Notes under the pieces: generated by a model
Told to the model about the DNA's origin: nothing
Seen by the model: the letters and a program-made list of their open reading frames with translations, nothing else
Database searches by the model: none
Translations under genes and position numbers: made by a program
Source: Eledone cirrhosa
Lineage: Eukaryota
Direction of reading: 5' to 3'
Length of the DNA stretch: 64,000 bases
Assembly (NCBI GenBank): GCA_964016885.1
Contig: OZ024747.1
Coordinates: 44,888,001-44,952,000 of the forward strand
Shown: positions 38,759-42,189 of the stretch, in pieces
How positions within the stretch are numbered: position 1 is the first letter of the stretch
Layout: every line of letters begins with the position of its first letter

Positions 38759-39157
38759 CATATTCATATACATATATATATATATACATATATATATATA
38801 TATATATATATATATATATATATATATATATATATATATATATATATATATATATATATATATATATATATATATATATATATATATATATATATATATA
38901 TATATATATATATATACAATATATTTAGAAACACACAGATACATGCGGACACACACATATATACATGAATGCATCCGCACCCAACTGTGAGTTAAGGGTG
39001 CTAACTTCACCGATGTTGCTCAATGAATGACTGGGACAGACCAATTCAGTTGAACTAGACTGAACCAGTATCAGAGTTAAAAATACATTATGAAGAGAGA
39101 AGAAACATTTAGATATAATTAGTAATAAAATGTATCATACCTAAACTGCTCCTAAAT

Positions 39158-39247
39158 TCCTCGACTACGTAGTTTCGTGGCATAAACAAAAACAATATAT
39201 CATAAAGATATAGAGTCCTTGCGAGGTCTGCCGACTTATCAAGAGGA
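39158..39247 (-). ncRNA. Type I hammerhead ribozyme, U3:A8 variant
   Basis: Reverse complement of 40091-40180. Confidence 0.82.
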
Positions 39248-40090
39248 TACCTCATTTTACTAGTCTCAAGAACGCGTCTACACGACGTGAGAAAGAATCC
39301 CAAAAGGCGGAGGGGGAGATAGTCACGCGATATAACGGTCGAGAAACAGAGCTAAGCCTCTTATAACCCCGAAGAAAATACCACGGAGGCGGAGGGGGTA
39401 TTTATATCGAGGCCGTAGAAGAGGTGGTGAAGAAGGCGAGAAGTATGAGTAATGGAAGCTTTCCAGCTGTCCCCACACTTCAAAGATTGCTCGACCAGAG
39501 GGAGTTATTAACAATATATTTAGAAACACACAGATACATGCGGACACACACATATATACATGAATGCATCCGCACCCAACTGTGAGTTAAGGGTGCCAAC
39601 TTCACCGATGTTGCTCAATGAATGACTGGGACAGACCAATTCAGTTGAACTAGACTGAACCAGTATCAGAGTTAAAAATACATTATGAAGAGAGAAGAAA
39701 CATTTAGATATAATTAGTAATAAAATGTATCATACCTAAACTGCTCCTTAACTCACAGTTGGGTGCGGATGCATTCATGTATATATGTGTGTGTCCGCAT
39801 GTATCTGTGTGTTTCTAAATATATTGTTAATAACTCCCTCTGGTCGAGCAATCTTTGAAGTGTGGGGACAGCTGGAAAGCTTCCATTACTCATACTTCTC
39901 GCCTTCTTCACCACCTCTTCTACGGCCTCGATATAAATACCCCCTCCGCCTCCGTGGTATTTTCTTCGGGGTTATAAGAGGCTTAGCTCTGTTTCTCGAC
40001 CGTTATATCGCGTGACTATCTCCCCCTCCGCCTTCTGGGATTCTTTCTCACGTCGTGTAGACGCGTTCTTGAGACTAGTAAAATGAGGTA

Positions 40091-40180
40091 TCCTCTTGAT
40101 AAGTCGGCAGACCTCGCAAGGACTCTATATCTTTATGATATATTGTTTTTGTTTATGCCACGAAACTACGTAGTCGAGGA
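40091..40180 (+). ncRNA. Type I hammerhead ribozyme, U3:A8 variant
   Basis: tcctc-TTGATAA-gt(c)ggca...tgccac-GAA-ACTACGTAGT-C-gagga; predicted GUC cut after 40175. Confidence 0.82.
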
Positions 40181-40685
40181 ATTTAGGAGCAGTTTAGGTA
40201 TGATACATTTTATTACTAATTATATCTAAATGTTTCTTCTCTCTTCATAATGTATTTTTAACTCTGATACTGGTTCAGTCTAGTTCAACTGAATTGGTCT
40301 GTCCCAGTCATTCATTGAGCAACATCGGTGAAGTTAGCACCCTTAACTCACAGTTGGGTGCGGATGCATTCATGTATATATGTGTGTGTCCGCATGTATC
40401 TGTGTGTTTCTAAATATATTGTTAATAACTCCCTCTGGTCGAGCAATCTTTGAAGTGTGGGGACAGCTGGAAAGCTTCCATTACTCATACTTCTCGCTTT
40501 CTTCACCACCTCTTCTACGGCCTCGATATAAATACCCCCTCCGCCTCCGTGGTATTTTCTTCGGGGTTATAAGAGGCTTAGCTCTGTTTCTCGACCGTTA
40601 TATCGCGTGACTATCTCCCCCTCCGCCTTTTGGGATTCTTTCTCACGTCGTATAGACGCGTTCTTGAGACTAGTAAAATGAGCTA

Positions 40686-40775
40686 TCCTCTTGATAAGTC
40701 GGCAGACCTCGCAAGGACTCTATATCTTTATGATATATTGTTTTTGTTTATGCCACGAAACTACGTAGTCGAGGA
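40686..40775 (+). ncRNA. Type I hammerhead ribozyme, U3:A8 variant
   Basis: Identical motif, offset +595. Confidence 0.82.
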
Positions 40776-41280
40776 ATTTAGGAGCAGTTTAGGTATGATA
40801 CATTTTATTACTAATTATATCTAAATGTTTCTTCTCTCTTCATAATGTATTTTTAACTCTGATACTGGTTCAGTCTAGTTCAACTGAATTGGTCTGTCCC
40901 AGTCATTCATTGAGCAACATCGGTGAAGTTAGCACCCTTAACTCACAGTTGGGTGCGGATGCATTCATGTATATATGTGTGTGTCCGCATGTATCTGTGT
41001 GTTTCTAAATATATTGTTAATAACTCCCTCTGGTAGAGCAATCTTTGAAGTGTGGGGACAGCTGGAAAGCTTCCATTACTCATACTTCTCGCCTTCTTCA
41101 CCACCTCTTCTACGGCCTCGATATAAATACCCCCTCCGCCTCCGTGGTATTTTCTTCGGGGTTATAAGAGGCTTAGCTCTGTTTCTCGACCGTTATATCG
41201 CGTGACTATCTCCCCCTCCGCCTTTTGGGATTCTTTCTCACGTCGTGTAGACGCGTTCTTGAGACTAGTAAAATGAGGTA

Positions 41281-41370
41281 TCCTCTTGATAAGTCGGCAG
41301 ACCTCGCAAGGACTCTATATCTTTATGATATATTGTTTTTGTTTATGCCACGAAACTACGTAGTCGAGGA
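41281..41370 (+). ncRNA. Type I hammerhead ribozyme, U3:A8 variant
   Basis: Identical motif, offset +1190. Confidence 0.82.
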
Positions 41371-41875
41371 ATTTAGGAGCAGTTTAGGTATGATACATTT
41401 TATTACTAATTATATCTAAATGTTTCTTCTCTCTTCATAATGTATTTTTAACTCTGATACTGGTTCAGTCTAGTTCAACTGAATTGGTCTGTCCCAGTCA
41501 TTCATTGAGCAACATCGGTGAAGTTAGCACCCTTAACTCACAGTTGGGTGCGGATGCATTCATGTATATATGTGTGTGTCCGCATGTATCTGTGTGTTTC
41601 TAAATATATTGTTAATAACTCCCTCTGGTCGAGCAATCTTTGAAGTGTGGGGACAGCTGGAAAGCTTCCATTACTCATACTTCTCGCCTTCTTCACCACC
41701 TCTTCTACGGCCTCGATATAAATACCCCCTCCGCCTCCGTGGTATTTTCTTCGGGGTTATAAGAGGCTTAGCTCTGTTTCTCGACCGTTATATCGCGTGA
41801 CTATCTCCCCCTCCGCCTTTTGGGATTCTTTCTCACGTCGTGTAGACGCGTTCTTGAGACTAGTAAAATGAGGTA

Positions 41876-41965
41876 TCCTCTTGATAAGTCGGCAGACCTC
41901 GCAAGGACTCTATATCTTTATGATATATTGTTTTTGTTTATGCCACGAAACTACGTAGTCGAGGA
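41876..41965 (+). ncRNA. Type I hammerhead ribozyme, U3:A8 variant
   Basis: Identical motif, offset +1785. Confidence 0.82.
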
Positions 41966-42189
41966 ATTTAGGAGCAGTTTAGGTATGATTTTATTACTAA
42001 TTATATCTAAATGTTTCTTCTCTCTTCATAATGTATATATATATATATATATATATATATATATATATATATATATATATATATATATATATATATATAT
42101 ATATAATATATATATATATATATATATATATTATATATATAAACACACAATATATTAACAAATGGAAACTATATTTATAAAACCATATT

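Follow-up and report, generated by a model that had tools for sequence, protein, structure and literature searches.

How a short non-coding unit with a hammerhead ribozyme motif comes to be laid down in tandem within a simple repeat is the question raised by a locus at 38766-42141 of a 64,000-nt stretch of Eledone cirrhosa DNA (contig OZ024747.1; the whole stretch is hereafter called the window). The original prediction described the locus as one tandem array with five hammerheads whose core positions 3 and 8 are U and A (U3:A8). The 595-bp period and the five motifs stand, but four motifs lie on the plus strand (40091, 40686, 41281, and 41876) and one on the minus strand (39247-39158), in an inverted arm. 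Comparison of the arm sequences showed that the locus consists of two head-to-head arms within a (TA)n tract, meeting 5' to 5': a minus arm of 1.4 units with one hammerhead and a plus arm of 3.85 units with four. The inversion and the two fixed 3' ends are the most informative features of the locus, and both were absent from that prediction. Taken as a whole, the locus is best explained, we think with fair probability, as one insertion of a non-autonomous Penelope-type element, i.e., a retrozyme lacking long terminal repeats (non-LTR retrozyme).

The features are as follows. Positions are those of the window, unit position 1 is the first nucleotide after the cut, the reference unit is 41366-41960, and "old units" are four units of an older subfamily.

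38766-38915, no strand: left (TA)n tract, target site.
38916-39748, minus strand: inverted arm, 833 bp or 1.4 units (unit 10 to 595 to 247), whose 3' end is the distal fixed end, P245.
38918-38937, minus strand: P245 box, a conserved 20-mer just before the distal end, 96% kept in the four old units versus 75-82% elsewhere.
39158-39247, minus strand: type I hammerhead, U3:A8, predicted cut after 39163.
39746-39748, no strand: 3-nt microhomology between the 5' ends of both arms.
39746-42036, plus strand: direct arm, 2291 bp or 3.85 units (unit 166, three laps, to 80), whose 3' end is the proximal fixed end, P80; it carries a 4-bp deletion near 41989.
39932-39939, plus strand: TATAAATA, 159 bp before stem I, with further copies from 40527, 41122, and 41717; not conserved.
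39940-40033, plus strand: two CCCCCTCCGCCT boxes per unit (39940 and 40022), conserved in the old subfamily.
40091-40180, plus strand: type I hammerhead, with stem II at 40103-40161, the palindrome at 40165-40174, and a predicted cut after C40175.
40176-40770, plus strand: cut-to-cut unit 1, 595 nt, strongly folded (z = -9.1).
40686-40775, plus strand: type I hammerhead, U3:A8.
40771-41365, plus strand: cut-to-cut unit 2.
41281-41370, plus strand: type I hammerhead, U3:A8.
41366-41960, plus strand: cut-to-cut unit 3, the numbering reference (circular fold, z = -7.0 sense and -1.6 antisense).
41876-41965, plus strand: type I hammerhead, U3:A8.
42017-42036, plus strand: P80 box, a conserved 20-mer ending at the proximal fixed end, 97% kept in the four old units.
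42037-42141, no strand: right (TA)n tract, target site.

The ends of this insertion recur throughout the family. End statistics were collected from 75 loci with 116 arms on contig C1, found by exact patterns, and from 26 best-hit loci, that is, from about 100 of several thousand loci; same-locus duplicates, the L105 segmental copy, two old L099 fragments, and a third arm at L222 were removed before counting. The sample favours hammerhead-bearing arms, and a list made with the P80 box brought just two new loci per 100 matches. Arms of the 595-nt family end at fixed sites 80 and about 245 nt past the cut, whereas their 5' truncation is scattered and they are often longer than one unit. On C1, 54 arms ended at unit ~80 (P80), 52 at ~245 (P245), and 10 elsewhere. 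Two-armed loci used one end of each kind in 34 of 39 cases on C1, with no same-same pair and five loci with an unclassified end; the best-hit set, in which 14 of the 26 loci were two-armed, gave 12 one-of-each, one same-same, and one unclassified. Over both sets, 46 of the 47 classifiable two-armed insertions were one-of-each. Single-armed C1 insertions end at either fixed site (19 and 16). Since the longest TA-pairing stretch of the unit (197-208) was never used as an end, the end sites appear to be chosen, not just annealed. Besides, contigs of run X1, which may be the assembly's own sample, have (TA)n loose ends at both fixed sites, behind 41444-41445 and 41609.

What the arms were copied from is recorded in their laps. 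We compared 35 diagnostic sites in 88 loci, leaving out gaps, positions 70-84 and 232-252, the two L099 old fragments, and the L105 duplicate. Discordance was 14/2,584 within arms (between laps) and 20/1,953 across arms, against 25.8% between loci, and 30 of 39 two-armed loci were fully concordant. The 63 fully covered loci hold 26 haplotypes, one of which occurs in 27 loci because best hits were included. Furthermore, 34 changes private to one locus within the sample were common to all laps, 19 of them across both arms, next to 123 singletons. The cut junction is exact in the listed hammerhead copies, a list that takes only copies matching a junction pattern. This identity of laps and arms indicates that each insertion was copied from one haplotype, repeatedly, over an intact cut junction. 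Of 107 arms with a fixed end, 94 continue over the cut site, and the stop rate at unit 1-35 was 14/213 passes, compared with a mean of 5.0% per 35 nt. These observations favour a template that was continuous across the cut site, for which a ligated circle is the simplest account, and long uniform uncut multimers also fit. We also observed a small cluster of 5' stops at unit 575-585, just beyond the palindrome, where the base of stem II lies (L022, L026, L094, L121, L125, L210, L213, and L214), which is perhaps a pause site. In addition, runs X4 and X5, under two other organism labels, each yielded one closed-loop contig of 620-621 nt with a 590-591-nt haplotype and no listed core change, and run X6 was dominated by one haplotype, with an allele that stands at 4% in X1. 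Because the kinds of run are not on record and closed loops look the same for a circle or a tandem, the X4-X6 contigs say nothing on circles.

The family itself is large and young. The window lies on contig C7 of a 3.0-Gb assembly, in which a search with the unit gave 1,210 candidates; the best 39, which were scored, were all (39/39) about 99% identical. Genome-wide pattern matches numbered 6,339 for the stem I-core, 7,916 for stem III, and 7,516 for the P80 box, with none for the controls. The first 100 stem I-core matches listed fall into 55 loci over 57.6 Mb, and extrapolation from them suggests that the genome holds roughly 3,500-4,000 loci. In 75 cut-to-cut units measured, the length was 565-607 nt, the family unit being about 590-595 nt. 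An older subfamily, about 80% identical and with units of 585-597 nt, has the same core and the same ends, the reading of L177-L206 having covered hammerheads and ends; in its four units the ribozyme parts are 94-99% kept and the end boxes 96-97%, versus 75-82% for other regions. The three cut-to-cut units in the window differ at just three or four positions, as had been noticed, and the absence of a credible open reading frame (ORF) held as well: the longest stop-to-stop frame within the units is 87 amino acids, and no ORF with a reverse transcriptase and a GIY-YIG domain is present. The picture of a young, dispersed, permuted, (TA)n-inserted element was borne out by the nearly identical copies, the thousands of matches, and the permuted ends on many contigs. 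Tandem non-coding units each carry a type I hammerhead, are dispersed in many copies, and share the genome with autonomous Penelope-like elements (PLEs); the arm ends are permuted, not LTR-like, in an analysis without a search aimed at a primer-binding site or polypurine tract. As far as sequence can tell, the element is an abundant, recently active, non-coding non-LTR retrozyme that has every defining feature testable at that level.

A promoter role was considered for TATAAATA, which had been said to lie about 160 bp upstream of the hammerheads. It does start 159 bp before stem I at each of its four positions, but only 1 of 158 5' ends falls at unit 377-387. We found no 5' pile-up 30 nt downstream of TATAAATA (1/158) or of TATAAGAG (2/158), and TATAAATA is replaced by TATAAGTA in three of the four old units and by TATGAATA in L131, so we rejected it as a promoter. 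The CCCCCTCCGCCT boxes are what we take to be promoter-like. Two further retrozyme-like families were seen in the same genome: L225 (C1:6518500-6523000) has six 316-bp tandem units with another U3:A8 hammerhead and a (TA)n end, and L226 (C1:5737000-5745000) has longer arrays, in which 466-bp units with a C3:G8 hammerhead follow one another at least 15 times up to a (TA)n end.

The hammerhead reads TCCTC-TTGATAA-59 nt-GAA-ACTACGTAGT-C-GAGGA, with U3 at 40096, A8 at 40101, and C17 at 40175. Its core, U3 U4 G5 A6 U7 A8 A9 / G12 A13 A14 A15.1 / U16.1 C17, is of type I with a Watson-Crick 3-8 pair, and its three stems are a 5-bp open stem I, a G-C closed stem II, and a stem III of 3 bp plus 4 nt (or 10 bp as a dimer); the stem parts are among those kept at 94-99% in old units, and a compensatory stem I change was seen in one single copy, L031. 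A strict descriptor matched six times in the window (the five U3:A8 motifs and a C3:G8 motif at 38261) versus none in 200 local shuffles, and confirmed every part of the motif as first described, namely U3 and A8, the 59-nt stem II, the 10-nt palindromic stem III, and the GUC triplet. No Rfam hammerhead model matched at E<=5 within 36000-45000.

The novelty given to the U3:A8 core, on the other hand, was overstated, and we rejected it as a new core. Published work is cited here from the available parts of each source. PMC3088659 reports natural U3:A8 covariation, with in vitro activity cited secondhand there, and PMC4209133 gives about 1,300 U3:A8 matches in PLEs (Cercyon) of S. mansoni; the core is also common in other hammerhead families of the same genome, many PLE families among them. 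Within the 595-nt family, 14 of the 6,339 stem I-core matches lack U3; all of these keep A8 and none is C3:G8, so that C3:G8 members of the family were sought among these matches and rejected. Changes of U7 are equally rare (n = 11), and thus copy counts are no test of selection on the core. Looser patterns gave 48,590 U3:A8-type and 87,499 C3:G8-type matches genome-wide, counts that include overlaps and compare with 12,714 and 16,799 for the controls; the first 100 matches listed contain many distinct hammerhead families, in which U3:A8 is common. One pair of similar motifs, in L035 and L077, has U3:A8 in one member and C3:G8 in the other. Surveys tied to C3:G8 miss whole retrozyme families.

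The unit RNA is predicted to be strongly self-paired, as in other retrozymes, with z = -9.1 for unit 1 and, for circular unit 3, z = -7.0 in the sense and -1.6 in the antisense strand (25 shuffles). The stem III palindrome would give a duplex of -12.9 kcal/mol for dimers. Between the young and old subfamilies, 26 of 38 changed predicted pairs still pair (null, 45 ± 6%), three of them via a double change; this test leans toward structure because the structure was predicted on the young sequence. The contact between GAGGA and the P80 box, on which a co-transcriptional on/off switch would rest, was seen in three of seven circular folds; as stem I was not favoured in nascent folds either, we rejected the switch as lacking support.

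Which enzyme could move such an element? Like PLE insertions, the locus has two 3' ends (the tail), an inverted 5'-truncated arm, and a microsatellite target. A GIY-YIG search of the genome gave 10,597 candidates, of which the best 150 were scored. Among them L071 (C1:145867500-145877400, minus strand) is a near full-length PLE, with a 938-amino-acid frame holding a reverse transcriptase and, at the C terminus, a GIY-YIG domain; its CxxxxCxxC linker is of the Neptune/Nematis type by motif alone (motif per PMC8557442). Each of its two repeats, which lie 4,979 bp apart, bears a U3:A8 hammerhead, and the genome has 6,100 exact matches to this motif. In the L071 family the arm ends fall at about +80 and +148 relative to the cut, and the inverted loci L076, L080, L082, L088, L164, L169, and L171 have one of each. 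This two-end pattern and the PLE insertion signature support the original proposal that the element is moved by a PLE reverse transcriptase. L071 and the retrozyme have an equal proximal distance (+80), and both distal ends show TTTCTAA(A)TATA. Two ends are likewise seen in other families that target (TA)n, so L071 can be called a candidate partner but not a proven one. At L110 (2020-2140) a short two-armed L071-type insertion abuts a retrozyme with almost no TA between them; two successive insertions into one TA tract explain this arrangement, and we rejected it as a PLE-retrozyme chimera.

We infer the following course of events. Very probably, an endonuclease-bearing PLE of the same genome would cut the (TA)n tract and its reverse transcriptase would start internally at two fixed sites; on RNA of a single haplotype, the two DNA ends would be extended from different sites, after which microhomology would join both cDNAs 5' to 5' into a two-armed insertion. 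Two internal starts of a PLE reverse transcriptase, which define the tail, are reported in vitro (PMC11167929). Less securely, although still on the probable side, arrays of at least two units would be transcribed and cut by their U3:A8 hammerheads, likely with the palindromic stem III pairing two copies into a dimer, or with the aid of protein, whereupon the monomers would be ligated into circles and the enzyme would roll round the circle, giving several identical laps. Circular templates of PLEs or retrozymes have been proposed in PMC4209133 and PMC7229834. A more tentative step, which we hold to be somewhat doubtful, is that a pair of PLE enzymes may hold both (TA)n ends, prime at +80 and +245, and both roll round the same single RNA circle. 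If this is true, the thousands of young copies would record, in the genome, target-primed reverse transcription by a double rolling circle, and a small non-coding circle would be a ready substrate to settle the roles of PLE hammerheads, tails, and inverted arms.

The strongest alternative keeps the element and its start sites but takes as template a linear multimer that would be transcribed from long arrays and stay uncut; the hammerhead would then cut rarely or be a protein-binding fold, and circles, if any, would be a side product. We regard this as unlikely, and several observations nevertheless speak for it or weigh against cut and circularised templates. In vitro, unprocessed RNA was the main substrate, hammerhead cleavage was protein-assisted and not required for reverse transcription, hammerhead mutants left insertion unaffected, and the start site did not differ between strands (PMC11167929). 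Only one of nine Xenopus retrozyme dimers was cleaved (bioRxiv 2026.07.22.740005), and one type III hammerhead tolerated only a G:C swap at the 3-8 pair (PMC9901934). In our folds, the active hammerhead exceeds the energy minimum of a 115-nt piece by 1.8 kcal/mol and is not the predicted ground state, and stem I has a probability of about 0 in circular folds and of 0.11 or less in nascent ones (seven units, in a model without dimers or proteins). Besides, in a non-random sample of 41 L071-family arms, 17 have their stop between -62 and -72, which is 30 nt past a TATA, upstream of the hammerhead, and a likely transcript start; this implies that uncut linear RNA often served the family as template. 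In another PLE-type family, akin to L071, the U3:A8 hammerhead has GCAA for GAAA (A13C) in all 17 copies listed; the family has still spread, and so is a natural test of whether cleavage matters, and its copies (L008, L031, L049, L051, L056, L077, L087, and others) have two ends, at about +115-124 and +153-164. In the retrozyme, the stop rate at unit 386-420 is twice the mean (17/162 passes) and five out of 13 short arms have their stop at unit 6-20, and thus some linear templates may be used. Finally, no homology of the retrozyme to PLE repeats was alignable in 50 GIY-YIG loci (of the 10,597 candidates) or the L071 tail, where only microsatellite-like matches appeared.

Against the uncut multimer, the 595-nt family has no sharp 5' stop of the L071 kind, since at most 12 of 158 5' ends fall within any 11-nt window. 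The longest arm is 2,907 nt, yet 45 of 116 arms exceed one unit; linear donor copies limited to that length would shrink at each round. Furthermore, 26 haplotypes in 63 loci, each repeated over its laps, would need many long uniform donors, which may still lie outside a sample of about 100 of several thousand loci.

The remaining alternatives fare much worse. Cut linear monomers, with the enzyme jumping from the 5' to the 3' end of a monomer for each lap, could draw on a small 5'-end cluster at unit 6-32 and on the template jumps discussed for PLEs (PMC3846280); this is very unlikely, as the cut junction is exact in the pattern-selected copies and only 3 of 116 arms stop within unit 590-9. It is still less plausible that duplication at the DNA level spread the family as a satellite, with local homogenisation, and that its hammerhead is left over from an old PLE repeat. 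PLE termini have been proposed to amplify locally (bioRxiv 2026.07.22.740005) and L105 is one segmental duplicate, but this reading is contradicted by the fixed 3' and scattered 5' ends, the inversions, the (TA)n targets, and the short arrays found on many contigs, as well as by the strand-specific folding and the selective conservation of ribozyme and end boxes. An assembly artefact, or the single-locus repeat that the original prediction had kept in view, can practically be dismissed, for although inverted and tandem structures near long (TA)n tracts are hard to assemble (PMC8557442), the units carry private differences, thousands of dispersed copies have distinct flanks, and the loose ends recur in run X1, subject to its origin.

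The remainder of the window is mostly repeats and broken retroelements; no host gene was found in it, with no modelling aimed at host genes. At 38256-38338 lies a separate type I hammerhead of the canonical C3:G8 form, whose stem III is palindromic and after which comes a short TA run; it is probably a PLE end, and its 3' half is repeated near 37826-37930. A broken PLE at 29047-30361 comprises a reverse transcriptase piece, 59% identical to L071 over 135 amino acids, and a GIY-YIG piece. A 25-bp minisatellite of 195 copies occupies 597-5470.

The locus bears on how PLEs build tandem and inverted insertions and on whether hammerheads make circular templates. The family is short, young, and abundant, and a near-intact PLE in its company has the two-end pattern too, with another pattern at the 5' ends, so that the circle and linear models can be distinguished. 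The finding shows neither a new ribozyme class nor a host function. No publication was found on the 595-nt family, a U3:A8 retrozyme, fixed retrozyme start sites, or the one-of-each count, in a search that left subscription literature largely uncovered; the supplement of PMC7229834 may list more hosts or variants.

Compared with animal non-LTR retrozymes (PMC7229834; bioRxiv 2026.07.22.740005), the element has the same non-coding tandem unit, with one type I hammerhead and a palindromic stem III in each, strong self-folding, dispersal as monomers to multimers, and PLEs in the same genome. It differs in its family-wide U3:A8 core, its long bulged stem II, and the lack of detectable homology to PLE repeats, and its circular RNA is a prediction from genomic copies. 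Its 595-nt unit exceeds the 170-400 nt of tested retrozyme circles and falls within the 51-972 bp of bioRxiv 2026.07.22.740005. With endonuclease-bearing PLEs (PMC4209133, PMC8557442, PMC3846280, and PMC11167929) it shares partial tandems, an inverted 5'-truncated copy, extension at one end only, two internal reverse transcriptase starts downstream of the hammerhead, AT-rich or (TA)n targets, and, in S. mansoni Cercyon, the U3:A8 core. Unlike them, it has no ORF, its tail is 165 nt versus 30-40 bp (67-70 nt in L071), and its arms run several whole-unit laps with no stop at a transcript start. Like the non-autonomous Chlamys PLEs, e.g., MRC1 (PMC8557442), it is non-coding and forms head-to-tail multicopy insertions by a PLE in trans; MRC1-type elements generally resemble their autonomous partner at the 3' end, whereas here the likeness is limited to short pyrimidine-rich motifs at the ends and the +80 distance. 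Two fixed reverse transcription ends and two-armed insertions do not appear in the available parts of the animal non-LTR retrozyme descriptions compared. Thus, with the U3:A8 core already known, the new detail lies in the insertion record: two fixed ends and the one-of-each rule.

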